DNA of 64,000 bases, taken from the NCBI GenBank assembly GCA_965222075.1, contig OZ244937.1, positions 3,424,001-3,488,000 of the forward strand, written 5' to 3'. This document shows positions 20,442-46,103 of this stretch, one piece after another. The notes beneath the pieces are model-generated. The model had not been told where the DNA came from, did no database searches, and saw only the letters and a list, made by a program, of their open reading frames with translations. The stretch is from Candidatus Latescibacterota bacterium. GTDB lineage: Bacteria; Latescibacterota; UBA2968; GCA-2709665. Each line of letters opens with the position of its first letter. The stretch's first letter is position 1. A program made the translations under genes and the position numbers.

Positions 20442-20584
20442 GGGGCTTTTCTGCGCGGTTCCGTTCACCGCCTTCGCCCAGAAACGCCCCAAAGGTCCGC
20501 AGGGCAGACCTGCCTGTGCCGTGCCCGGCACGGCAGACAGGAGCTTCCGTTTCCACCCCAGGGGCAATTTGCGGAAAAGCAGCC
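20442..20584. repeat. Dispersed palindromic repeat, copy 2, carrying a 33 bp insertion
   Basis: Aligns with 7353-7465 apart from the insert at 20509-20541. Confidence 0.75.
20509..20541 (+). repeat. CCTG..CAGG mini-palindrome (33 bp)
   Basis: cctgcctgtgccgtgcccggcacggcagacagg; absent from repeat copy 1. Confidence 0.85.
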
Positions 20585-26108: not shown

Positions 26109-26139
26109 CCTGCCTGTGCGTTGCACGCACGCAGACAGG
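26109..26139 (+). repeat. CCTG..CAGG mini-palindrome (31 bp)
   Basis: cctgcctgtgcgttgcacgcacgcagacagg at GA^T. Confidence 0.9.
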
Positions 26140-26178: not shown

Positions 26179-26209
26179 CCTGCCTGTGCGTTGCACGCAC
26201 GCAGACAGG
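26179..26209 (+). repeat. CCTG..CAGG mini-palindrome (31 bp)
   Basis: Identical to 26109-26139, at GA^T. Confidence 0.9.
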
Positions 26210-31524: not shown

Positions 31525-33407
31525 CCTTAAATAAGCGAGTTCCTTAAATAAGCGAGGTTTTGTTGTTTGCTGAACAGAAAGGCCATTTTGTGTTACGATT
31601 TGGTTGATAGAAGTATCCGTGCTGCCTAATATGGTGCGCGGGAGGTCGTTCTGGCGTTTGTTGAGTGTTTGTTGGAGTGGTAAAGCGAACCGTTATTTGT
31701 CGGGTGGGCGTATTTGTCCGTTGCGTCGCCGTGGGCGTCGTGGGTCCCCTGGTACAAGGTCACGGTTCGTGCCGGTGTCAGGTGAAGCCGGTTCGTTCGA
31801 TGGTAGCCCAAGCGCTCAAGAGTCTTTTCAGGGATGGCTGATAGCCGATGATGCGCACCCTCGTGCTTCGGGCGTGTCGCACGACACGACAGGGAAACAG
31901 GATGATGTGTGTGAGGAAGGTCCGAAAGTCCATACGGATATATTGTCGGCGATGGTTTTTTTGATGCATCATCAGGGCAAACCACGACTTGATGTTCCAG
32001 GCCAGTGCGGCGATGACCATGTAGGCCCAGTTGCTGATCAAGTCATACAAGGGCACGCGCAGGGCATTGACGCCGTTCTTAAGCTGTTCGATCACGTTTT
32101 CCTGGTCACATCGTTTGTTGGCAGCAAAGACGACCTCGGCGGGAGTCAGGTCGTCGCGTGTGGTGATATAGAAGAAATATCGGATATCGTCGAAGAGGGT
32201 CTGCTGGCCTTTGGTTTTACTGATGTTTTTGCGGAGGGCCACGACGCGGTAGGGGCGTTCGCACTTGCCCGGCTGGTAGTCAAACTCAGCCACGTCTTCG
32301 AAGTTGAGCGCCAACTTGAGGTAGCCCCGCGCTTTGACGATACGCTGCTTCTCATTGTCCCGTCGCTGCCTTTTCTGGGGCGCGTGAGGCCGGTGCAGGC
32401 GCTGCCAGTTGGCTTCGTCAAGGGCTTCGGCGCGTGTTCGTAAGGCGCTATTGCAGTCCATCCCGAAGATGAAATCGGTGTCCTTTGCCCAGCGATCAAA
32501 GTGACCAGTGAGCGAAAAGTCTGTGTCGCCGCGTAGGCACAGGCGCTGCGCATGGGGCTTCACCAGGGCGATGGCCGCATCGATCCAGGGTGGGGCCCCC
32601 TGGTGACTCGACGCGTTGCCCGGACGGTTGACCACATACAGCACCTCTTTGGTGTTGGCCAACGATACGATCAGGGGTGCATACCCCCACACGCCCTTGT
32701 AGGAGATGTCCATACCGCCCTTCTTCTCCCCATACGTCGGCGCGGTCGTGCCATCCACATCGATGTAGGCGACCGGCTCCAGGAAACTGGCAGCGCGTGT
32801 GCGCCACAACTTGGGGCGTACCGCGTTAATGCAGTCCATAAGCCCAATCACGTCCGCTTCCCTGAAGCGACGCGTGAAGTCGCCCGCGGTGGTCGGGTCC
32901 GGGATCAGCTTCGCGTTCAAGGCATTCATGTAGGCCCCGTCATGTCGCAAACGCTCGATGTCTTCCAGACGCGTGCCACCGCACATAACGTTGTAGGTAA
33001 GGTTCAACACGTGATCCGACTCATGATAGGGCAGATGTACCTTCAACAACTTCAACGTCGTGTCTATCGCGTTGACCAATCCCAACTTGGTCACCAGACG
33101 ATGCACGGCCGCAATGCCACCGTAGCTCATCGCTTCTGGTTGCGCGCTGACCTCGTAATGCACACAGGTGCTGCCAAACATCGGCTTGGCTTGTGCACAA
33201 AAGCGACCGGCAAGCATCTGGCGAGCACGTACCTTGCGCCCACAATTAACACTGTTCCTGCGGCTCTCTTTTACCGATATTCTTTTCACCGGAAAGGCCT
33301 CCTTCGTTGGAGTAGCAATTTCTCGTCCGATACTGCTAACTCCATCTATGGTAAGTCTTTCCGGTACTTTTGTGCACAAAAATCTCAAAAAACCCGCTTA
33401 CTTGGGG
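31525..33407 (-). mobile_element. IS1380-family insertion sequence
   Basis: Imperfect IRs CCTTAAATAAGCGAG / CCCCAAGTAAGCGGG; TSD ATTAGG at 31519-31524 and 33408-33413. Confidence 0.9.
31778..33388 (-). CDS. IS1380 family transposase
   Basis: YIDVDGT, LRGDTDF, RCDQENVIEQLK; true start probably further downstream. Confidence 0.92.
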   Translation of the reverse strand: MRFLCTKVPERLTIDGVSSIGREIATPTKEAFPVKRISVKESRRNSVNCGRKVRARQMLAGRFCAQAKPMFGSTCVHYEVSAQPEAMSYGGIAAVHRLVTKLGLVNAIDTTLKLLKVHLPYHESDHVLNLTYNVMCGGTRLEDIERLRHDGAYMNALNAKLIPDPTTAGDFTRRFREADVIGLMDCINAVRPKLWRTRAASFLEPVAYIDVDGTTAPTYGEKKGGMDISYKGVWGYAPLIVSLANTKEVLYVVNRPGNASSHQGAPPWIDAAIALVKPHAQRLCLRGDTDFSLTGHFDRWAKDTDFIFGMDCNSALRTRAEALDEANWQRLHRPHAPQKRQRRDNEKQRIVKARGYLKLALNFEDVAEFDYQPGKCERPYRVVALRKNISKTKGQQTLFDDIRYFFYITTRDDLTPAEVVFAANKRCDQENVIEQLKNGVNALRVPLYDLISNWAYMVIAALAWNIKSWFALMMHQKNHRRQYIRMDFRTFLTHIILFPCRVVRHARSTRVRIIGYQPSLKRLLSAWATIERTGFT

Positions 33408-33525
33408 ATTAGGCCAACTCTCGAAGTGACTCCCAAGATTGTCGGGACGGATTCCCTCAAGGGTACTCTGGTATCTAATTGACATCGCGTCGTGTGCGTT
33501 CATGTGAATTTTTACTCGCCATGTC

Positions 33526-33606
33526 GTCTAACGTCCCCGCCGTGCCCGAACCGCGAAGCGGTTGCGCGAAGGGCGTAGCCCGAAGCCGGGCACGGACGTG
33601 TTAGAC
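33526..33606 (-). other. attC site 11
   Basis: GTCTAAC...GTTAGAC; CCGTGCCCG/CGGGCACGG arms. Confidence 0.92.
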
Positions 33607-33663
33607 GGCGTTGGCCAAATCGTCACCACGGAGGAGATTTTTGGGCACACGGTTGCAGAGCGT

Positions 33664-35025
33664 TCAAAATGCCTCTTTCCCAACGATCTCGTAAACCCTC
33701 GCCGGATGGCGGTGATCTTTGACCTTATTGAATAGCGCTTTGGCCTTTTCCAGCATCCCGGCCCGTCCATAGAAGTAGATGAGGTTGCCAGCCTCGTTTG
33801 GTCTCCCAGTGAGGTCCCATACCTTCTCCTGCACGACCACGGCCCTGCCCCAATCACCCCTGTGGAATGCCAAACAGGACCCCATTTGCCGAAGTGCAAC
33901 GTAGGCCCATACGGTCTTTTGGCCTAGTCCGTACATGGTCTCATACACCGGATAGGCCTCATCCCACCGGTTCTGTCGAGCCAGTGACAAAGCGAGGTAG
34001 TTCAGGCACTGCTGGTCTTCAGGGGCCAAAGTGACGGCATGGCGGGCAACTTCCTCCATCTCTTCAAAGTCGCGTTTCCACAAAAACATCTGCGCCTTGG
34101 CAGTGAGAGCAACTATGTCATCAGGGTCCTTTGCAAGCCGCAGACTGCATAGCTCCAGGCATTTCTCGATTGCCGTGGCCTGCTTTTGCTGGTCGCCCGC
34201 CCATAAAACGGTAAGCTCGAACGCAACATCGATGGAGTCCGGCGCCGCTTTCGCGGCTCGTTGAAGGGTTGCCGCCTCTTCCTCGGAGGGGCCCTTGATC
34301 GGGTCATATGTCCGTCCGAGCTCCATCAATGCCTCAGGATGGTCCGGGGACACCTCCAGTGCTTCCCTGAAGCGTGCGCGTGCCTCATCCATCCTCATGT
34401 ACAATCGATCCCTCTTGCCCTGTTCCAAGAGTCGGGCAATGGTCCGTGCTGCGAATCCTTCGGGCAGATCATGCTTGCTCCTGTCATCTCTTGCCATGCG
34501 GGTGACCTCCTCCTTAAGCTGCCTGCGCGCCCTGTATAGCCGCTGTTTCACACCTGCAGGGGTCGTTCGTACCAGAAGAGCCACATCCTGAATCGAATAC
34601 CCTTCCAGATAATGCAGTGTAAACGCCTGGACGCTTTTCGCAGGAAGCCTTGAAAACAGTTCCTGGAACGCTGCATTCCGGATAACAGGCTGCTCTGGAT
34701 GTTCTCTGAGATCCGTCACCTCGACAACTGACTTCGCCACGGCTTGGTGGCGGCGATTGTCCCTCAACCTGTTGAGGCAGATGTTGCGAAGTATCTGCCC
34801 CACCCAGGATGAGAATCGAGAGTGCTCCTTCAGAGCCTCAAGCTGTTTGAAGGCCTTCAAGAATGCGTCCTGAAGAGCATCCTGTGCCTCTTCCTTAGCG
34901 TGCACATAACTTAGCGCCTGCAGGTAGAGGCGATCCTGATGGCGTAACACCAGGGCTTCGAATGCAGAAAGGCTGCCAGAGAGTGCGGCGGCGACTAGCT
35001 GGGCATCTGTGGATAGGCTTTCCAT
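33664..35025 (-). CDS. ECF-type sigma-70 factor fused to TPR repeats (cassette, copy A)
   Basis: AFEALVLRHQ, DALQDAF, FSSW, GVKQRLYRAR; C-terminal TPR-like helices. Confidence 0.88.
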   Translation of the reverse strand: MESLSTDAQLVAAALSGSLSAFEALVLRHQDRLYLQALSYVHAKEEAQDALQDAFLKAFKQLEALKEHSRFSSWVGQILRNICLNRLRDNRRHQAVAKSVVEVTDLREHPEQPVIRNAAFQELFSRLPAKSVQAFTLHYLEGYSIQDVALLVRTTPAGVKQRLYRARRQLKEEVTRMARDDRSKHDLPEGFAARTIARLLEQGKRDRLYMRMDEARARFREALEVSPDHPEALMELGRTYDPIKGPSEEEAATLQRAAKAAPDSIDVAFELTVLWAGDQQKQATAIEKCLELCSLRLAKDPDDIVALTAKAQMFLWKRDFEEMEEVARHAVTLAPEDQQCLNYLALSLARQNRWDEAYPVYETMYGLGQKTVWAYVALRQMGSCLAFHRGDWGRAVVVQEKVWDLTGRPNEAGNLIYFYGRAGMLEKAKALFNKVKDHRHPARVYEIVGKEAF

Positions 35026-35117
35026 CGCTCTACCATTACGACACCTCAGGAGAGAGGAAGGTAACGCCGAGGAAGGATTCTTGCAGTAATCTCCGCCCGT
35101 TCGTGAGGGCAAATGCC

Positions 35118-35196
35118 GTATAACGTTCTCGGCACCCCCGAAGCCGCGAAGCGGTTTTGTGCGGAGCGAAGCGAAGCCGGGGGTGCCGTGTTAACC
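35118..35196 (-). other. attC site 12
   Basis: GTATAAC...GTTAACC; CGGCACCCCCG/CGGGGGTGCCG arms. Confidence 0.92.
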
Positions 35197-35260
35197 GATG
35201 TGGAGGTTTGTCGGATCACCAAAAAGTTCAAGAGGCAACCATCACCCCTTGCTTTTTTGT

Positions 35261-35566
35261 TCATTCATTTCCTGCCAGTGCTTCTGACCAACGCCTGGCC
35301 ATTGTCCTCAATTCTTCCTCATGGGCTGGCCAATCGTGAAGCGTGGCAGGATCAAAATCAGCACCATTCGGCCAGACGAGTGTATGCACCTCAGGATCAA
35401 TACGCACCTCATTAAAAAGCAATATATCCATCAGAGGTCCGAACAACTCGCCCTCAAGAACTGGACGAAAATCGATAACTCGAGTCGTTTCATCGTTGAA
35501 TCTGACTTTGATCTGATAGGTCCCAACAATCTCAAATGAAACGACTCGATAGATTGGATGACTCAT
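35261..35566 (-). CDS. DUF2442 protein (putative antitoxin), copy A
   Basis: IKVRFND...F.PL...TLVWPNGADFDP. Confidence 0.85.
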   Translation of the reverse strand: MSHPIYRVVSFEIVGTYQIKVRFNDETTRVIDFRPVLEGELFGPLMDILLFNEVRIDPEVHTLVWPNGADFDPATLHDWPAHEEELRTMARRWSEALAGNE

Positions 35567-35577
35567 TCTATCCTCCC

Positions 35578-35847
35578 TTAATGAAGCGGATCGATCGGCA
35601 AGGGAGGATGCCCAGATTGGAGCCGACCCCAATCTTCAAGGAGCTCCTCCTGATGCAACTCCGCCCAGGCTTCGACGAATCGTTGCTGACGGCGTGGCAA
35701 AGTCCCTGCGATCAATTCAATGGTATCCACAGCGTAAACGGCCACTTCATCTTGATAATAGGCGTGAAAATGAGGCCGATGGTGCTGTGTTCTCGGTTCG
35801 GCAAACATGCGAATGATGATTCCGAAAAACCGAGAAATTTCAGGCAT
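35578..35847 (-). CDS. DUF4160 protein (putative toxin), copy A
   Basis: MPEISRFFGIIIRM...PHFHAYY...WAELHQEELLEDW. Confidence 0.88.
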   Translation of the reverse strand: MPEISRFFGIIIRMFAEPRTQHHRPHFHAYYQDEVAVYAVDTIELIAGTLPRRQQRFVEAWAELHQEELLEDWGRLQSGHPPLPIDPLH

Positions 35848-35997
35848 TTGTTTTCCTTGCGATATGGATTTTATCGATGAAACCCTGCGGGAAATAAACC
35901 GGATTATGCATGGGTAAGCAAAATCCAAATTGGGATGAATGGGAGTCTGTTTTTGCCCCTCAGAGCTTGACCAATTAGCCCTTAAAACCTCCATGTC

Positions 35998-36081
35998 GGT
36001 TAACGTTCATCTGCCCCTGAACCGGCACAGCCGGTTGGGCGAAGGCCCGAATGGGCCGAAGCCAGGGGCAGGGTGTTATGC
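35998..36081 (-). other. attC site 13
   Basis: GGTTAAC...GTTATGC. Confidence 0.9.
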
Positions 36082-37298: not shown

Positions 37299-38291
37299 CT
37301 ATCCCAGTATAACAGCTATTCGGTTGTTCATATATTCGGTGATTTCCTTCAACTCCTGTTTGTTGTACGCCTCTTCAATGAGCCCCCAGCAGGTCAGGTA
37401 CCCAAGCGGATAGCGTAAACGATAGTACTCCAGGTGCAGCTCGTGGTCCTTATGAAGAGGGGCATCGTAGGATTTCCAAAAAGCCTCAAGACAGGAAGCC
37501 ATCAGATCCTCCCGATCGAATCCTAGATCATAGACCTCGTGGGAGAAGTGGTTGTACAATCTAGAAATATCCTGAATCCCGTACCCCGGCCCAACGCCCT
37601 CGAAGTCCAGCAGTCCCGTTACGGTATCTCGCGAAATCATGATGTTGGTTGCAGAGAAATCCCCGTGGGTTAGACAAGGCTGGACGTCTTCGCTAAAGAC
37701 CTCAATCCCTTTCCGGACCCAGCCCTCCAAGCGAGAACCCCATTTGGCAAAAGGGGTTTGAAAACTGGCTTTCACAATCTCTAATCCACGCTGTAGCTCA
37801 TATTCACGAGCTGTATGGCTGGTGTCGATTCCCTCCCGGGGTTTGACCCTGACCTCACCGTCTTTATATGCCAATCCTCCACCAAAGTGAGAGAAAGCAC
37901 TGATTTGGTGGAACGAAGAAAGTATTGTTCCAATCTGGGAATAGACAGCAACGGCTTCCTGGCGGGATAAACTCTCGCCCGCGTCTCCGAGGTTCTGCCC
38001 GTTGATGTACTCTTTGGTTACAAACTCCCCGGGCATGAGGCCAGCACGTAACCCTGTTTCGAGCACTTTGGGAACAGGAAGCTCAGTCTTGTCCTCCAGT
38101 ACGTTGATGACGAGGAGCTCGTGCTCAAGAGCATTAAGTTGACCGGGCGGGACATATTGGACCACAAATGGAGCAGTGTCCCTTGGGTGCACGAGATAAG
38201 TGGGTTTGCAGATGCCGCCTTCCAATTGCTCGAAATGCGCAATCGGTCTCCGGATAACCTCCTCAATGACATCAAGAGTCACTTCAGCCAT
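37299..38291 (-). CDS. Aminoglycoside phosphotransferase (APH)-family kinase
   Basis: LPVPKV, LTHGDFSATN, LLDFE. Confidence 0.85.
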   Translation of the reverse strand: MAEVTLDVIEEVIRRPIAHFEQLEGGICKPTYLVHPRDTAPFVVQYVPPGQLNALEHELLVINVLEDKTELPVPKVLETGLRAGLMPGEFVTKEYINGQNLGDAGESLSRQEAVAVYSQIGTILSSFHQISAFSHFGGGLAYKDGEVRVKPREGIDTSHTAREYELQRGLEIVKASFQTPFAKWGSRLEGWVRKGIEVFSEDVQPCLTHGDFSATNIMISRDTVTGLLDFEGVGPGYGIQDISRLYNHFSHEVYDLGFDREDLMASCLEAFWKSYDAPLHKDHELHLEYYRLRYPLGYLTCWGLIEEAYNKQELKEITEYMNNRIAVILG

Positions 38292-38321
38292 TTAGCCCCG
38301 TGTTGAGTTTGTTGTGCGGGA

Positions 38322-39113
38322 TCAGGATATCAGCTGCTTGGCCAAATCAATACCAGGATCATATCCCTCCAAAGCTGGTTCACCCTGAGAAACAGCAATG
38401 GTCGTGACCATTCGGTAGACCAGCGCGCGGATCAGTAGCTGGGGGAAGTGTTCAACGTGAGAGACATGCTCAATTAGACCTGACGGATCTGCATCCCGCC
38501 AACACACGGCATCCGCTACAACGATAGCAGACGCAAACCCAACTGGACGCCAATAGGGCGAAAAATCGATCACGGCCGGGGAAAGTCCTTCAGCGAAGAG
38601 GATATTCTCCGTAAGGTCACCGTGAATAAGCTGCGATGTGGTTACCATCGGGGAGCGCATGCGGAGTAACTCGGTGAGCCGCTTGTTTGCGAATGGCGGC
38701 TCTATCTCCTCCCAAGCTACAAAATCACCAAGTGACCAAGGATCATCTGAGCGATCGTCCAGGAATGGCGCCCGAGGCAGGTGCTCAATTGCCTTATGGA
38801 ATCGGTCTCCGGTGAGAATTACTTCTGCCCATCTTTCCTGCTCAGGGTGTTCGCCCTCAACCGCTTCTTGGGCACACCACCCGTCAACAACCCATCGTCC
38901 ATCGAAGGCCCGTACGGGAAGTGGCAGCCTAAAGCCTTCTGCTTTAACTGTTGATAGATGGTCGGCGAACCAACGCCAAACGTCAGGACTTTCGTCCGGT
39001 TTGAGGATAAGGTCTCCTGCCAGCCAGCAGCAACCCTCCCCGCCAGCTAGTTGTACCAAATCTGCGGTAACATTGAACGCTTGAATTACCCTATCAGGGG
39101 GCCGGGGGCTCAT
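38322..39113 (-). CDS. TIGR02569-like APH-fold phosphotransferase
   Basis: DGRWVVDGW, QLIHGDLTENILF, VIDFSPYWRP. Confidence 0.8.
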   Translation of the reverse strand: MSPRPPDRVIQAFNVTADLVQLAGGEGCCWLAGDLILKPDESPDVWRWFADHLSTVKAEGFRLPLPVRAFDGRWVVDGWCAQEAVEGEHPEQERWAEVILTGDRFHKAIEHLPRAPFLDDRSDDPWSLGDFVAWEEIEPPFANKRLTELLRMRSPMVTTSQLIHGDLTENILFAEGLSPAVIDFSPYWRPVGFASAIVVADAVCWRDADPSGLIEHVSHVEHFPQLLIRALVYRMVTTIAVSQGEPALEGYDPGIDLAKQLIS

Positions 39114-39301: not shown

Positions 39302-40344
39302 GCATGTGCTGGTTTTGGTGTCAGGAAATCGACTGGCGGTGCCGATCAATGGATCTTAACGAGCGAAATTCGTCCCAATGTTTAATCGAGGAAATATCAC
39401 CTGATGTCTTTATGGATCCGGGCCGATCATCTGATCTGTCGAAGTAGACCGCTTGCATACCGAGCTGCTTTGGTGCAGTATAATCGTTCTGTAGGCTGTC
39501 ACCGATGAATAAGACTCTATTGGCTTGATCAGCTTGCACATTCGCAAGCCCCTGTTGATAAATCTGTTTACCTGGCTTTTTCCATCCGAAGTCCGAGCGG
39601 GCGCGGTCCCATAGTGTGACAAAAAAGATAGCATAACATCCTCAATAATTTCTTATGGTTAGAGGAAAGTTTGGGAAATTTACTTCTAACCAACAAGAAT
39701 CAGAAAGGACGTTATGCTGGATCATATCATAGATCAAGTGACAGAAAAAGTCAACCAAAAGTTGCCTAAGATGGTGAGCGACTTGCAAGAGAGTCTTTCG
39801 TTTGCCGACTTGGAGCATGGCTTGATCGGTTTGCTCCAGGAGGTGGTGGGCATCGTCGTGAGTCCGGTGTTGAATCAGGTTTTTCAGGATGAGGCCTTGC
39901 TGTTTGGGCTGCGTCAGGCAGCCGGTAGTATGGGCTACAGATATAAGGAACATCGGCCTTTGACCGTACGGATTTTGGAAGGTGTAGAAGTTGAAGTCTC
40001 TTCGCCCTATTTCGTTAAGCGGGGTCGCAAACGGGGCAGGAAGAAGCGGGGTCCCAATGGTCGAGGGTGTCATCTGTTATTGGATGTGCTTGGGTTTATC
40101 GGTCAGTGCAGTCCGGAGTTTGTAGATGAAGCTGTGAAGTTGGCCTTGTTATGCCCCTCCTTTGAGGTGGCCACTCAGGTGTTGGATGCCCGTCAGATAA
40201 AGCTGGACAAAAAAACCCTTCGAAGATTGTGCAAAGCTTTAGGCGAATTGGGTCTGGAGCAGAGAGCCACGATTGCTCTAAAAGATGAGCTCTCCTTTTC
40301 AGGTCGCACGGTGTATATCGGCATCGATGGGGGTCGGATGCGGA

Positions 40345-40371
40345 CCTGCCCGCGCGCAGCGCGCAGGCGGG
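40345..40371 (+). repeat. Mini-palindrome variant (27 bp, in frame)
   Basis: cctgcccgcgcgcagcgcgcaggcggg at GA^T. Confidence 0.8.
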
Positions 40372-40534
40372 TGCGTGAGCCCAAGCGGGGTCGAAAGCCG
40401 AAGGGAAAGAAATATCCCCGATATGATACACCTTGGAGAGAACCCAAGTTGTTTACCATCTACATGTTGGACGAAAAAGGTCGCGTCGAAAAATCGTGGA
40501 CGCCTATCCACGATGCGACTCGGGGCAATGCCGA

Positions 40535-40561
40535 CCTGCCTGTGCGGTGCACGCAGACAGG
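40535..40561 (+). repeat. CCTG..CAGG mini-palindrome (27 bp, in frame)
   Basis: cctgcctgtgcggtgcacgcagacagg at GA^T. Confidence 0.9.
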
Positions 40562-40853
40562 TTTGATGTTTGAGATGCTGGAAGCTACCCTTTTGGAACT
40601 GCCCCTGCAACAGGCCGATCGGGTCGTGTTTATCGCCGATGGGGCAGAATGGATCTGGCCGAGGGTAGAGCGTCTGATCTGGAGGTTGGGGGTGCCTCCA
40701 AGCAAGGCGATCCAGATCCTCGACTATTACCATAATAGTGAAACCCTCTTTGAACTGGTGCAACTCCAACCGAAGCTTAAAGAAAAGGCACAACGTGCCC
40801 TGTATGAGACGTGGAAGACCTGGATGTGGAATGGGGAGCTTTTAAAACTCCGA

Positions 40854-40889
40854 CCTGCCTGTGCGTGCTGTCTCACGCACGCAGACAGG
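40854..40889 (+). repeat. CCTG..CAGG mini-palindrome (36 bp, in frame)
   Basis: cctgcctgtgcgtgctgtctcacgcacgcagacagg at GA^A. Confidence 0.9.
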
Positions 40890-40969
40890 AAAGAAGTGCT
40901 CCAGCAGCTTCGCGGGAAAAAACGAAAACAGGCCATCACATCCCTGAACCATTTCGACCGTCATGCGCA

Positions 40970-40994
40970 CCTGCCTGTGCCGATGGCAGACAGG
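40970..40994 (+). repeat. CCTG..CAGG mini-palindrome (25 bp, frameshifting)
   Basis: cctgcctgtgccgatggcagacagg at CA^T. Confidence 0.9.
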
Positions 40995-41035
40995 TCGAAT
41001 GCGCTATCCTACCTTCAAAGAACAGGGCCTTCCCA

Positions 41036-41062
41036 CCTGTCTGCGTGCCACGCACAGGCAGG
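41036..41062 (-). repeat. CCTG..CAGG mini-palindrome (27 bp, opposite orientation)
   Basis: cctgtctgcgtgccacgcacaggcagg; splits the LPIGSG motif. Confidence 0.9.
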
Positions 41063-41300
41063 TCGGAAGTGGACACGTCGAAAGCGCCATCCGTCGTGTC
41101 ATCAATCTTCGGATCAAAGCACCAGGCACGTTCTGGAAAAAAGACATGGGCGAATACTTCCTGTTTCTGCGCTCACAGTTGATCTGTGGAAGATGGCCTA
41201 TCTTCTTCCAGAATGTCACAGGACGATACCGAACGGGTGAGTTTGCCCAACATCTCTTTCCCTCTTCTCCGAAAATGGGTTTGCTCAAGACAGGGACAGA

Positions 41301-41325
41301 CCTGCCTGTGCCGCCGGCAGACAGG
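41301..41325 (+). repeat. CCTG..CAGG mini-palindrome (25 bp)
   Basis: cctgcctgtgccgccggcagacagg at GA^T. Confidence 0.9.
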
Positions 41326-41935
41326 TGATCACTAACGCAATTAACCGCTTATTCAACAACTTAACACGACTTTCTATATGTCATACTTTGGGACTGCACC
41401 CAGTCCGAGCTGCCTAACATAAATTCAAAATATTTCCCAAGACCGGACTTTTGGATGCTCCGAGAAGGACCATCTGGAAGAAAGAAGTTCGACACGACAG
41501 CCAATCGGCACTTATCTATCCAGAAGTCGAGCATTTGCACAACGCCGGGTGTAAGTCTAAGGGTCTTGGGAAATTCCTGTTCGAAGTGCTCAATCATTTC
41601 ACAAACCAAACCTTCGATTTCACCTCTTCTCTCAGGGGCCTTCTCCTCAAGAACTGCACGGAAACGTTCCGGCAACGTAACTTCGCGCCAGGTCCCGTCG
41701 GACCACTGGTTCTCCCGCCACCTATCATAATCTTGCCTGAAATCAGTTGAAGAAGAATAGAACCCCGCCTCTACTGGCATGTGAGTGAGAAACCCGATCC
41801 CGGATTCATCTCCTGTGTCATCGAAATTGTCAATCAGTGTATTGAAGCAGTCGAAGAATATCCAATCAAACGAGCTCATTTTCCGGTATTTTGCACCCTT
41901 TGTCTTTTCGTTGAGCTAGCCAAAACCAACATTGC

Positions 41936-42014
41936 ACTTAACGTTCTCGGCACCCCCGAAGCCGCGAAGCGGTTTTGTGCGGAGCGAAGCGAAGCCGGGG
42001 GTGCCGTGTTAACC
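41936..42014 (-). other. attC site 16 (same body as attC12)
   Basis: ACTTAAC...GTTAACC. Confidence 0.92.
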
Positions 42015-42078
42015 GATGTGGAGGTTTGTCGGATCACCAAAAAGTTCAAGAGGCAACCATCACCCCTTGCTTTTTTGT

Positions 42079-42384
42079 TCATTCATTTCCTGCCAGTGCT
42101 TCTGACCAACGCCTGGCCATTGTCCTCAATTCTTCCTCATGGGCTGGCCAATCGTGAAGCGTGGCAGGATCAAAATCAGCACCATTCGGCCAGACGAGTG
42201 TATGCACCTCAGGATCAATACGCACCTCATTAAAAAGCAATATATCCATCAGAGGTCCGAACAACTCGCCCTCAAGAACTGGACGAAAATCGATAACTCG
42301 AGTCGTTTCATCGTTGAATCTGACTTTGATCTGATAGGTCCCAACAATCTCAAATGAAACGACTCGATAGATTGGATGACTCAT
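42079..42384 (-). CDS. DUF2442 protein (putative antitoxin), copy B
   Basis: Identical translation to 35261-35566. Confidence 0.85.
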   Translation of the reverse strand: MSHPIYRVVSFEIVGTYQIKVRFNDETTRVIDFRPVLEGELFGPLMDILLFNEVRIDPEVHTLVWPNGADFDPATLHDWPAHEEELRTMARRWSEALAGNE

Positions 42385-42395
42385 TCTATCCTCCC

Positions 42396-42665
42396 TTAAT
42401 GAAGCGGATCGATCGGCAAGGGAGGATGCCCAGATTGGAGCCGACCCCAATCTTCAAGGAGCTCCTCCTGATGCAACTCCGCCCAGGCTTCGACGAATCG
42501 TTGCTGACGGCGTGGCAAAGTCCCTGCGATCAATTCAATGGTATCCACAGCGTAAACGGCCACTTCATCTTGATAATAGGCGTGAAAATGAGGCCGATGG
42601 TGCTGTGTTCTCGGTTCGGCAAACATGCGAATGATGATTCCGAAAAACCGAGAAATTTCAGGCAT
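42396..42665 (-). CDS. DUF4160 protein (putative toxin), copy B
   Basis: Identical translation to 35578-35847. Confidence 0.88.
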   Translation of the reverse strand: MPEISRFFGIIIRMFAEPRTQHHRPHFHAYYQDEVAVYAVDTIELIAGTLPRRQQRFVEAWAELHQEELLEDWGRLQSGHPPLPIDPLH

Positions 42666-42815
42666 TTGTTTTCCTTGCGATATGGATTTTATCGATGAAA
42701 TCCTGCGGGAAATAAACCGGATTATGCATGGGTAAGCAAAATCCAAATTGGGATGAATGGGAGTCTGTTTTTGCCCCTCAGAGCTTGACCAATTAGCCCT
42801 TAAAACCTCCATGTC

Positions 42816-42905
42816 GGTTAACGTTCTACCGATTGCCGAACCTGCGAAGCAGGTTGCCGAAGGCCAAGCGCCGAATGGCGCGCAGCGGCAAACGAGTTGT
42901 TAGAT
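42816..42905 (-). other. attC site 17
   Basis: GGTTAAC...GTTAGAT. Confidence 0.88.
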
Positions 42906-44359: not shown

Positions 44360-44416
44360 CTAGATTCTTCTCCTCCGAAAAATCAACCAGCCTGGCAAGA
44401 ATTCCTAAGGCATGGC

Positions 44417-44497
44417 GCGTAACGTCCCCGCCGTGCCCGAACCGCGAAGCGGTTGCGCGAAGGGCGTAGCCCGAAGCCGGGCACGGACGTGTTAGAC
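44417..44497 (-). other. attC site 19 (same body as attC11)
   Basis: GCGTAAC...GTTAGAC. Confidence 0.92.
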
Positions 44498-44554
44498 GGC
44501 GTTGGCCAAATCGTCACCACGGAGGAGATTTTTGGGCACACGGTTGCAGAGCGT

Positions 44555-45916
44555 TCAAAATGCCTCTTTCCCAACGATCTCGTAAACCCTCGCCGGATGG
44601 CGGTGATCTTTGACCTTATTGAATAGCGCTTTGGCCTTTTCCAGCATCCCGGCCCGTCCATAGAAGTAGATGAGGTTGCCAGCCTCGTTTGGTCTCCCAG
44701 TGAGGTCCCATACCTTCTCCTGCACGACCACGGCCCTGCCCCAATCACCCCTGTGGAATGCCAAACAGGACCCCATTTGCCGAAGTGCAACGTAGGCCCA
44801 TACGGTCTTTTGGCCTAGTCCGTACATGGTCTCATACACCGGATAGGCCTCATCCCACCGGTTCTGTCGAGCCAGTGACAAAGCGAGGTAGTTCAGGCAC
44901 TGCTGGTCTTCAGGGGCCAAAGTGACGGCATGGCGGGCAACTTCCTCCATCTCTTCAAAGTCGCGTTTCCACAAAAACATCTGCGCCTTGGCAGTGAGAG
45001 CAACTATGTCATCAGGGTCCTTTGCAAGCCGCAGACTGCATAGCTCCAGGCATTTCTCGATTGCCGTGGCCTGCTTTTGCTGGTCGCCCGCCCATAAAAC
45101 GGTAAGCTCGAACGCAACATCGATGGAGTCCGGCGCCGCTTTCGCGGCTCGTTGAAGGGTTGCCGCCTCTTCCTCGGAGGGGCCCTTGATCGGGTCATAT
45201 GTCCGTCCGAGCTCCATCAATGCCTCAGGATGGTCCGGGGACACCTCCAGTGCTTCCCTGAAGCGTGCGCGTGCCTCATCCATCCTCATGTACAATCGAT
45301 CCCTCTTGCCCTGTTCCAAGAGTCGGGCAATGGTCCGTGCTGCGAATCCTTCGGGCAGATCATGCTTGCTCCTGTCATCTCTTGCCATGCGGGTGACCTC
45401 CTCCTTAAGCTGCCTGCGCGCCCTGTATAGCCGCTGTTTCACACCTGCAGGGGTCGTTCGTACCAGAAGAGCCACATCCTGAATCGAATACCCTTCCAGA
45501 TAATGCAGTGTAAACGCCTGGACGCTTTTCGCAGGAAGCCTTGAAAACAGTTCCTGGAACGCTGCATTCCGGATAACAGGCTGCTCTGGATGTTCTCTGA
45601 GATCCGTCACCTCGACAACTGACTTCGCCACGGCTTGGTGGCGGCGATTGTCCCTCAACCTGTTGAGGCAGATGTTGCGAAGTATCTGCCCCACCCAGGA
45701 TGAGAATCGAGAGTGCTCCTTCAGAGCCTCAAGCTGTTTGAAGGCCTTCAAGAATGCGTCCTGAAGAGCATCCTGTGCCTCTTCCTTAGCGTGCACATAA
45801 CTTAGCGCCTGCAGGTAGAGGCGATCCTGATGGCGTAACACCAGGGCTTCGAATGCAGAAAGGCTGCCAGAGAGTGCGGCGGCGACTAGCTGGGCATCTG
45901 TGGATAGGCTTTCCAT
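44555..45916 (-). CDS. ECF-type sigma-70 factor fused to TPR repeats (cassette, copy B)
   Basis: Identical translation to 33664-35025. Confidence 0.88.
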   Translation of the reverse strand: MESLSTDAQLVAAALSGSLSAFEALVLRHQDRLYLQALSYVHAKEEAQDALQDAFLKAFKQLEALKEHSRFSSWVGQILRNICLNRLRDNRRHQAVAKSVVEVTDLREHPEQPVIRNAAFQELFSRLPAKSVQAFTLHYLEGYSIQDVALLVRTTPAGVKQRLYRARRQLKEEVTRMARDDRSKHDLPEGFAARTIARLLEQGKRDRLYMRMDEARARFREALEVSPDHPEALMELGRTYDPIKGPSEEEAATLQRAAKAAPDSIDVAFELTVLWAGDQQKQATAIEKCLELCSLRLAKDPDDIVALTAKAQMFLWKRDFEEMEEVARHAVTLAPEDQQCLNYLALSLARQNRWDEAYPVYETMYGLGQKTVWAYVALRQMGSCLAFHRGDWGRAVVVQEKVWDLTGRPNEAGNLIYFYGRAGMLEKAKALFNKVKDHRHPARVYEIVGKEAF

Positions 45917-46008
45917 CGCTCTACCATTACGACACCTCAGGAGAGAGGAAGGTAACGCCGAGGAAGGATTCTTGCAGTAATCTCCGCCCGTTCGTGAGGG
46001 CAAATGCC

Positions 46009-46103
46009 GTCTAACGTCTCACGGTTTGCGAACCCCGAGCTTGTCGAGGGGTTGCCGGAGGCCAAGGCGCGACAGCGCCGCAGCGAAAACCGCTGTGTTA
46101 TGT
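46009..46103 (-). other. attC site 20
   Basis: GTCTAAC...GTTATGT. Confidence 0.88.

Follow-up and report, generated by a model that had tools for sequence, protein, structure and literature searches.

The window analyzed here, a 64,000-bp stretch at positions 3,424,001 to 3,488,000 of a single 5,360,005-bp contig of a Candidatus Latescibacterota bacterium (genome G000; G+C content, 59.3%), carries an insertion sequence (IS), copy A, whose transposase gene contains six short inserts that are probably separate copies of a family of mobile hairpins. Copy A occupies positions 39599 to 41401 of the plus strand (1,803 bp, with boundaries from the alignment to a second copy, copy B), is 1,636 bp long without its six inserts, and has a G+C content of 49.7%, compared with 59.3% for the genome. 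The left terminal inverted repeat (39599 to 39621, plus strand) shares 19 of 23 positions with the right one (41379 to 41401, minus strand, read from the sequence). The 9-bp target-site duplication AGTCCGAGC is likewise read from the sequence on both sides, at 39590 to 39598 and 41402 to 41410, and its nine letters fit either side of the empty-site joint; the repeats and the duplication are thus intact, as the original prediction held. The element splits a HAD hydrolase gene of the minus strand into an N-terminal part (an open reading frame [ORF] at 41402 to 41879, with a weak PF00702 match to model positions 2 to 148 over 41403 to 41879, 18.6 bits and below the cut-off) and a C-terminal part (39324 to 39598, where the piece from 39324 to 39596 passes the PF13242 cut-off of 22 with 25.1 bits and matches PF00702 positions 153 to 191). 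Public sequencing runs were used as contigs, in which rare variants and ongoing excision are hidden, and read depth was not used for copy number or expression. Contigs of runs X1 and X4 join position 39589 to 41402, omitting the IS and one repeat copy, which indicates that an uninterrupted hydrolase allele exists in nature and that the IS insertion in this gene is polymorphic in natural populations.

The transposase matches PF06782 (UPF0236) with 29.7 bits, above the cut-off of 24.3, and its best NCBIfam model is ISKra4 (NF033572; 112 bits with a cut-off of 205), followed by ISLre2 (NF033529; 34.8 bits with a cut-off of 200). A 9-bp target duplication is typical of the ISKra4/ISLre2 family. 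The element shares with this family the PF06782 match, the best NCBIfam model, the inverted repeats, and the duplication, but its NCBIfam scores lie far under the equivalog cut-offs. The ISKra4/ISLre2 comparison proposed earlier thus finds agreement in PF06782 and none in the NCBIfam equivalogs, and the host element is only ISKra4/ISLre2-like, a distant member at best. The full-length IS was not found in 40 related species genomes by DNA search or in 21 genomes of the family by protein search, and no IS relative was confirmed in a collection of named-genome contigs. Its absence from all 40 related species genomes indicates that the IS is a recent arrival in this genome.

The transposase reading frame, including its six hairpins, extends from 39714 to 41335 on the plus strand, and the present-day ORF (39714 to 41240) encodes 508 amino acids, with the true frame being lost at insert 4. 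Insert 1 (27 bp, 40345 to 40371, between GCGGA and T, a member of the CCTGCCCG...CAGGCGGG subfamily), insert 2 (27 bp, 40535 to 40561, between GCCGA and T), and insert 3 (36 bp, 40854 to 40889, between TCCGA and A) are in frame and in the plus orientation. Insert 4 (25 bp, 40970 to 40994, plus strand, between GCGCA and T) causes the first frameshift, and insert 6 (25 bp, 41301 to 41325, plus strand, between ACAGA and T) causes the second, three codons before the stop. Insert 5 (27 bp, 41036 to 41062) lies in the opposite orientation, with the foot TTCCGA on the minus strand. All six sites have C at position -4 and A at position -1, and all six inserts, when folded as DNA, form an outer 5-bp stem that includes the flanking A-T pair, followed by an internal loop or mismatch and then by an inner stem with a small loop. 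Copy A became a pseudogene because the two 25-bp elements shift the frame. Removal of the six inserts in silico (167 bp in total, excised by coordinates) leaves 1,455 nucleotides with a single stop at codon 485, and the restored 484-amino-acid product shows no mismatch to P0122, a natural insert-free copy from a protein collection. The claim that no other frame-disrupting lesion is needed is confirmed by this identity, and the restored peptides GRMRMREP, ADLMFE, LRKEV, HAHRMRY, LPIGSGHVESA, and the terminal TDDH before the stop are also seen in copy B and in homologs. Among the 20 best of 1,205 homologs, 13 are exactly 484 amino acids long, and none of the 13 outside homologs in a 16-sequence alignment contains any of the six segments, so that homologs retaining the inserted peptides, the finding named beforehand as decisive against the insertions, did not appear. 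A strict hairpin pattern has four matches in the window and none in 100 shuffles. At the genome-wide density of the family, 0.086 hairpins would be expected in the 1,636-bp insert-free IS, and the probability of at least six is 5e-10; at the intergenic density it is 4e-7.

Copy B lies at genome positions 2,831,293 to 2,832,991 and has its own 9-bp duplication, TCTTCGGTT. Over 1,699 aligned bases, copies A and B differ by nine substitutions (0.5% divergence) and four gaps and by nothing else, and the four gaps are exactly inserts 1, 2, 4, and 6. The junctions are A directly followed by T when empty and A-CCTG...CAGG-T when filled, with unambiguous boundaries and nothing duplicated or lost. Both copies carry inserts 3 and 5, which are older than the split between them. 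The frame of copy B, encoding 505 amino acids, is intact because its inserts (36 and 27 bp) are multiples of three, and in its predicted structure (mean predicted local distance difference test [pLDDT] score of 67.6, which is modest), both inserted peptides form low-confidence coil between helices. As copy B holds two of the six inserts, the set was not simply inherited as a block, and the nine substitutions without any other indel agree with the suggestion that insertions accumulated faster than ordinary decay. In addition, three metagenomic relatives of the IS (L205 to L207; protein identity, 83 to 88%) have 1,455-bp frames that lack all six inserts at the DNA level, with the junctions reading CNGA before T, CNGA before A, or C-C-C-A before T. 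Eleven exact empty-site comparisons (4 + 6 + 1) are available in total, and none shows a target duplication. Contigs of the public runs also contain empty forms: insert 1 is absent in X1 and X4, inserts 1 and 2 together in one X4 contig (54 letters absent), and insert 6 in X4 and X18, and a joint skipping insert 3 is found in X1 and X3, in which the letters between are not known. X18 and X20 are RNA libraries labeled as sponge metagenome, and metatranscriptome contigs of X18 cover parts of the IS in the form without insert 6, which hints at the habitat and possibly at expression, with DNA carry-over being possible.

Twenty-six proteins from other assemblies (90% identity clusters around copies A and B) were scored for hairpins at eight sites, which comprise the six sites of copy A, a new site following LQQAD, and another following KEVLQ. 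Among the hairpin combinations, of which there are at least 12, are {2}, {6}, {3,6}, {3,5}, {1,3,5}, {2,3,6}, {1,2,3,4,5}, and {1,2,8,3,4,5}, and six proteins of 484 amino acids have none. Several of the 26 proteins are otherwise 100% identical to P0122, and such varying loads in otherwise identical proteins indicate that hairpin states change faster than amino acid substitutions accumulate; among near-identical IS copies, hairpin presence or absence would thus change faster than point substitutions. Each site always carries the same peptide and hence the same hairpin variant. The sites are partly nested in occurrence (3 contains 5, 5 contains 4, and 3 contains 1), and all four presence/absence combinations are found in 9 of the 28 site pairs. 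Stepwise gain on a tree is insufficient to produce these nine pairs, so recombination, precise excision, or both must have acted, and the hairpin pattern appears to have been reshuffled in this way. The original prediction of repeated, independent insertion is supported, and the checks proposed with it all gave results in its favor: the inserts are separate members of the family, each different, drawn from a diverse pool of about 280 genome copies. An accumulation in situ at this very locus is no more than a possibility, as P0137 from another assembly holds the same 1-2-3-4-5 set.

The hairpin family numbers 262 copies in the genome by a relaxed terminus pattern and 283 by a slightly wider one, with 0 to 1 matches per genome for a reversed-pattern control, and 104 copies belong to an oriented subfamily. 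Identical 27-mers of insert 1 are found elsewhere in the genome, and the 27-mer of insert 2 occurs four times. The lengths in the 262-copy set peak at 33 bp (80 copies), 27 bp (40), 25 bp (16), 30 bp (13), and 36 bp (13), and multiples of three dominate overall. The termini CCTG...CAGG are conserved, as CCTGCCTG...CAGGCAGG or CCTGCCTGTG...GCAGACAGG, and the inner stem and loop are variable with palindromy kept. The two arms of the commonest subfamily differ by two transitions, which gives the element an orientation. A target profile of 82 solitary oriented copies with distinct flanks shows C at position -4 in 69 copies (background, 30%), C in 44 and A in 18 at -3, G in 42 and C in 29 at -2, A in 56 and G in 23 at -1, and T in 53 and C in 19 at +1. 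These counts define a tetranucleotide on one side only, C-N-N-A (in most cases CCGA or CAGA), which is usually followed by T, and it belongs to the target rather than to the element because it remains in the empty sites. Inspection of the six IS sites found no consistent palindromic or other special context beyond CNNA and the following T. Hairpins flanked by G and C are mostly nested inside other hairpins, between CG and CA, and hairpin-in-hairpin forms of 42 to 70 bp are common.

According to a crude gene caller of our own (3,598 genes; 83% coding), 105 of the 262 copies (about 40%) lie inside coding sequences, 6 lie at gene edges, and 151 are intergenic. Lengths divisible by three account for 78 of the 105 copies inside genes and for 94 of the 151 between genes (Fisher p = 0.058). 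A gene of 1,079 amino acids of the AcrB family carries a 27-bp hairpin in frame between CCGA and T; its orthologs in G001, G003, and G004 are empty at this place, and all 20 relatives searched match the region over 594 to 597 nucleotides, compared with 624 to 627 in G000, making them 9 to 10 codons shorter. A 434-amino-acid open frame at about 496598 to 497899 of G000 (L036:1099-2400, minus strand) contains three in-frame family hairpins of 27, 30, and 33 bp; it has no Pfam or NCBIfam match, and immediately downstream, at 498127 to 498270, there is a weak hit to rve (integrase core). Three further family hairpins are present on the plus strand of the window: two of 31 bp at 26109 to 26139 (foot TCCGA, then T) and 26179 to 26209 (foot ACAGA, then T), and one of 33 bp at 20509 to 20541 (foot GCAGA), which lies within a larger repeated unit found at other places in the genome. 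The 33-bp hairpin recurs at G000 391024, 3208499, and 5127200 with the same flanks (GCAGGGCAGA ... AGCT[CT]CCG), and its presence at four places with identical flanks indicates that it is part of a larger composite repeat rather than a solitary insertion.

Hairpin loading is not special to this transposase, and other IS families in the genome have been struck as well. Around 21 transposase loci, 35 hairpins are found in 30.3 kb, with 1.6 being expected and the maximum in 2,000 random sets being 10. Hairpins are present at 14 of the 21 loci. As five of the 21 loci came from hairpin clusters, the count was redone on the 16 loci obtained from family searches alone, which contain 19 hairpins, with 1.05 expected, and 9 of which are hit. 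Clusters lie in an IS982-type ORF (three hairpins, all in frame), in an IS5/DDE_Tnp_4 element that is present twice (three hairpins each), and in a DDE_Tnp_1 gene, an IS1182-type gene, and a DDE_5 gene. The density is about 1 per kb around transposases, compared with about 0.16 per kb in intergenic DNA and 0.11 per kb in 2-kb windows of 48 to 56% G+C, IS loci included, so that low G+C explains little of the enrichment. Suitable C[CAG][GC]AT sites number 40 in the IS and 83,034 in the genome, which indicates that target sites are not limiting. Insertion sequences are thus a preferred sink of the family, with an enrichment of about 20-fold in the transposase genes of several unrelated IS families, and the cause is probably a combination of targeting to IS DNA and relaxed purifying selection within it. 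One of the seven hairpin-free loci among the 21 lies in the window, where a DDE_Tnp_1 hit (31991 to 32764, minus strand; 50.7 bits; open frame of 539 amino acids) has no family hairpin within 400 bp.

The family is present in 31 of 41 related genomes, although very unevenly. Nine genomes are rich, with 226 (G000), 222, 206, 135, 129, 91, 87, 84, and 64 copies, and the others have 0 to 21; these others include close congeners with 0 to 3, and close kin have 0 to 6, compared with 226, 222, 206, 135, and 129 in the five richest genomes. The rich genomes are G000, G021, G009, G019, G003, G002, G024, G020, and G018, of which G024 (87 hairpins) belongs to the other family of the order. A hairpin pattern scan of named-genome contigs listed scattered matches in unrelated taxa, which carry no information on the distribution of the family. 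The recurring variants differ between genomes among the matches listed, in which G019 shows the exact insert 2 27-mer many times, together with a sequence nearly matching the insert 3 36-mer, and G009 has many copies of a 28-mer and a 30-mer. These patchy counts and genome-specific variants point to a mobile family that bursts in separate lineages.

Taken as a whole, the six inserts are best explained as separate copies of lineage-specific, very small, nonautonomous mobile hairpins, an explanation that we consider likely to be correct. The element consists of one imperfect hairpin of 25 to 36 bp with CCTG...CAGG ends, in which a conserved mismatch or bulge separates an outer stem of 5 bp from an inner stem and loop that vary. 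It inserts seamlessly and without duplication directly 3' of C-N-N-A, usually before T, with the flanking A and T extending the stem, and a HuH-Y1 single-strand DNA transposase supplied in trans would cut and rejoin the hairpins. Such "peel and paste" mobility of the repetitive extragenic palindrome (REP) or IS200/IS605 type is suggested by the match in the seamless one-sided target, the bulged hairpin, the high copy number, and the dependence in trans; by analogy, we regard the chances for and against it as evenly balanced. Members of the IS200/IS605 family, such as IS608 and ISDra2, insert seamlessly 3' of a specific tetranucleotide without duplication, recognize their ends as hairpins, and can be excised seamlessly. 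Insertion 3' of a tetranucleotide without target duplication is shared by the family described here. IS200/IS605 elements have two different subterminal hairpins around genes, whereas the unit here is a single hairpin of 25 to 36 bp, the replication orientation bias is only weak, and the canonical TnpA of this genome has unrelated ends. Judged by such comparisons, a resemblance of the anatomy to a REP- or IS200-type single-strand element is well supported. The small dispersed repeats (SDRs) of cyanobacteria (Elhai et al. 2008) are reportedly hairpin repeats of 21 to 27 nucleotides that are mobile according to filled and empty sites and often nested; they differ from the hairpins here in sequence and host phylum, and we know of no CNGA target or IS preference for them. 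Rickettsia palindromic elements (RPEs) are about 100 to 150 bp long. The elements here, in contrast, are 25 to 36 bp long, with a defined four-base target and a strong build-up in transposases. They are RPE-like in that the in-frame hairpins in the AcrB-family gene and in copy B add short peptides, as RPEs are described in part of PMC3733652 as palindromic selfish DNA in frame in protein genes.

A further comparison is with REPs and their REP-associated tyrosine transposases (RAYTs). Passages of PMC8266576 describe the REPs recognized by TnpA-REP as imperfect palindromes with a bulge and a conserved motif before them. Bulged palindromes of 20 to 40 bp after a short motif, in hundreds of copies, are common to both systems according to passages of PMC3733652 and PMC8266576, and so, in the former, are their occasional clustering, their patchiness among related genomes, and their occasional presence inside genes. 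However, REPs have a GTAG or CGTC tag, neither of which is found in the CCTG hairpins; their motif is part of the element, whereas CNNA is the target and is left behind in empty sites; REPs and REPINs form doublets, whereas a single hairpin is the inserted unit here; and about 40% of the hairpins may be genic, going by the crude gene calls, whereas REPs are mostly extragenic. In REPtrons, the same repeats flank the RAYT gene, whereas the RAYT-like genes here and in relatives are flanked by other REP families. The nearest published counterpart is that of Quentin et al. (2018): class 3 TnpA-Y1 genes, which are rare and found mainly in Planctomycetes and Acidobacteria, are described in passages of PMC6006769 as being flanked by high-copy secondary structures with a 5' foot of CnGA and up to ~600 copies per genome. 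The foot motif and the high copy number are the same here, the likeness being drawn from the described foot alone and not from the sequence (PMC6006769, in part). The structures in that description flank a class 3 HuH-Y1 gene, and no such gene was found here; the passages of PMC6006769 on them report no empty sites, genic insertions, or IS preference. Membership in the REP or class 3 systems thus fails, for now, on the enzyme, and the hairpins themselves are, by analogy, a REP-like mini-hairpin family. How REP-like hairpins spread is still poorly understood, as stated in part of PMC8266576, and in a nonexhaustive literature search, no title or abstract was found that describes empty sites of single hairpins, CNNA as a target, in-frame colonization of genes, a roughly 20-fold build-up in transposases, or a fast combinatorial hairpin load of one IS.

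Several results weigh against the mobile-hairpin explanation, and most concern the enzyme. No cognate enzyme for CCTG hairpins was found in the genome with the PF01797 profile and six-frame motif scans. The profile finds one canonical IS200-type TnpA of 156 amino acids, with unrelated end hairpins, and one broken copy, and the motif scans of the genome find only two class 2 RAYT-like genes, both tied to GTAG-tagged REPs. The six-frame scans of G000 reveal no ORF with the class 3 motifs (NHVH ... YV[VI].EQ, as given in passages of PMC6006769), and motif scans near the hairpins reveal no class 3-like ORF. In hairpin-rich relatives, the RAYT-like genes are flanked by other hairpin families, and G024, with its 87 hairpins, has no intact PF01797 match. 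Across the genome and its 40 relatives, the number of PF01797 matches does not track that of hairpins (0 matches and 135 hairpins in G019, 32 and 2 in G004, and 75 and 1 in G038). The search for a longer "master" element sharing these ends gave only six distant terminus pairs, none of which is convincing. Clear replication bias is predicted by IS608-like lagging-strand targeting, and the bias observed is weak, with 12 plus and 22 minus copies on one replichore and 40 and 30 on the other (Fisher p = 0.059, duplicates not removed). Finally, the split into genic and intergenic copies rests on the crude gene calls.

Two RAYT-like types co-occur with the hairpins, being present in 8 of 9 hairpin-rich and 1 of 32 hairpin-poor genomes (Fisher 8e-7, in which kin are not independent); they were rejected as the mobilizing enzyme, as each lies in its own REPtron with different REPs, and the additional weak Y1 hits in relatives proved to be different RAYTs accompanied by different REPs. 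The RAYT-like gene at 3242104 to 3242868 of G000 encodes 255 amino acids with NHVH, WQ, and YVLNNP motifs and is bracketed by two direct copies of a ~135-bp repeat with GTAG-tagged hairpins, the core of which, GTAGCGCAAAC, has only three occurrences in the genome; orthologs of the gene are present in G009, G012, G017 (with a stop), and G019. In the second RAYT-like gene of G000 (1858861 to 1859469; 203 amino acids), GTAG-type REPs are inserted in the frame itself and separate the HuH motif from the Y motif, and the locus (1858300 to 1859469) includes a partial tandem duplicate upstream; a similar REP-containing gene is present in G024. A conserved RAYT-like gene found only in hairpin-rich genomes (L067 to L072, from G021, G009, G020, G003, G002, and G018, respectively) has inverted CGAGGGCA...TGCCCTCG hairpins on either side and is thus the REPtron of another family, and open frames of 1,200 to 1,441 amino acids near it hold a second RAYT-like domain.

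Other explanations concern what the hairpins are, how they came to be distributed over the IS copies, and why they gather there. There is next to no chance that the inserts are native variable loops of the transposase or assembly artifacts. In favor of this, three of the inserts leave the frame of copy A open, and both inserts of copy B lie in predicted coil, but hundreds of the same sequences lie outside the IS, the 484-amino-acid homologs lack them, two of them shift the frame, and contigs of independent public runs contain them. Minimal miniature inverted-repeat transposable elements (MITEs), that is, two fused terminal repeats of a DDE-type IS moved by its transposase, would have the short inverted repeats, conserved termini, and many copies observed, in a genome that has many DDE transposases. 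Such an origin is nevertheless extremely unlikely, as none of the 4 + 6 + 1 empty-site comparisons shows a target duplication, the target motif is one-sided and orientation dependent, no longer element shares the termini, and the IS terminal repeats examined are unrelated to CCTGCCTG. Transposase loci of at least five unrelated IS families are enriched roughly 20-fold in hairpins, and copy A is inactivated by two frameshifting ones, all of which could also be taken as the work of a host system that deliberately places hairpins in transposase genes to restrain insertion sequences. This is very unlikely, since 151 of the 262 hairpins are intergenic and others lie in ordinary host genes such as that of the AcrB-family transporter, many IS hits keep the frame (copy B and the IS982 transposase with its three in-frame hairpins), and no dedicated gene was found.

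An unlikely but more substantial possibility is that hairpins insert nearly anywhere with a CNNA, that selection removes those elsewhere, and that rapid gain and loss set the density, so that the IS would be a neutral sink without any targeting. The 40 sites in the IS and 83,034 in the genome, which are not limiting, the mostly frame-keeping hairpins of host genes (78 of 105, compared with 94 of 151 intergenic; p = 0.058), and the dominance of multiples of three are consistent with this, but the density near transposases exceeds both that of intergenic DNA and that of low-G+C windows, no hairpin lies in the split HAD halves, and the IS is young (0.5% between copies), whereas hairpins could have been gathering in intergenic DNA for much longer. 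The last alternative bears on history and is compatible with mobile hairpins: rather than copy A gathering its hairpins singly at this locus, a heavily loaded IS allele may have pre-existed, with precise excision and recombination or gene conversion between IS copies, possibly in other strains and ahead of the arrival of the IS here, creating most of the differences now seen. We find this conceivable, although on balance it is not what we expect. It would account for the nine site pairs with all four combinations, for the constant variant at each site, for the set shared by P0137 and copy A, and for conflicting amino acid variants, as P0002 shares I87 with copy A and R132 with copy B; the absence of the full-length IS from the 40 related species genomes and of a cognate enzyme from this genome also fit it. 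On the other hand, the insert-free copies and outgroups demonstrate a past gain of each hairpin, the nested sites 3/5/4 and 3/1 are what stepwise gain predicts, and excision was never directly seen, in contigs that hide rare variants.

Within the mobile-hairpin explanation, a stronger form would make the hairpins a rapidly cycling single-strand element that goes in and out seamlessly, faster than point mutation, and truly prefers IS DNA, possibly because transposition or transfer leaves such DNA single stranded; we hold this form to be rather doubtful. If it is true, "parasites of parasites" of 25 to 36 bp would throttle or modulate transposases across a bacterial lineage, and the multiple-of-three lengths would be an adaptation for riding inside still-functional genes. 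Clean filled and empty pairs are rare for single hairpins, and the locus and its relatives constitute a natural experiment, with eleven exact empty sites, a four-base target, and at least 12 combinations at eight sites in near-identical IS copies, which makes the chemistry of insertion, and possibly that of excision, directly testable. Insertion sequences are known to target REPs, as described in part of PMC1525189, and the build-up of hairpins in transposases reverses this relation; if targeting is involved, two classes of mobile DNA would be interacting in a new way.

In the surroundings of copy A, hairpin pattern scans found no family hairpin in either half of the HAD gene, in agreement with what had been noticed at the outset. 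Two kinase-like ORFs adjoin the split gene (window positions 37302 to 39113, minus strand), one of which is weakly APH(3')-like (38.5 bits, compared with 205) and the other of which matches TIGR02569 just below the cut-off (132, compared with 136.75). An ADOP-type permease match in the genome, which would hint at Acidobacteria, is below the family cut-off. The IS lies in a region of low G+C content (30 to 50 kb of the window; about 46 to 59%) that resembles a rearranged island. The window also contains a 2.5-kb segment together with a rearranged duplicate of it, with 33520 to 35132 corresponding to 44411 to 46024 at 99.6% and 35121 to 36008 corresponding to 41939 to 42826 at 99.9%, and this segment holds an identical 482-amino-acid ORF resembling extracytoplasmic function (ECF) sigma factors at 33667 to 35112 and 44558 to 46003.

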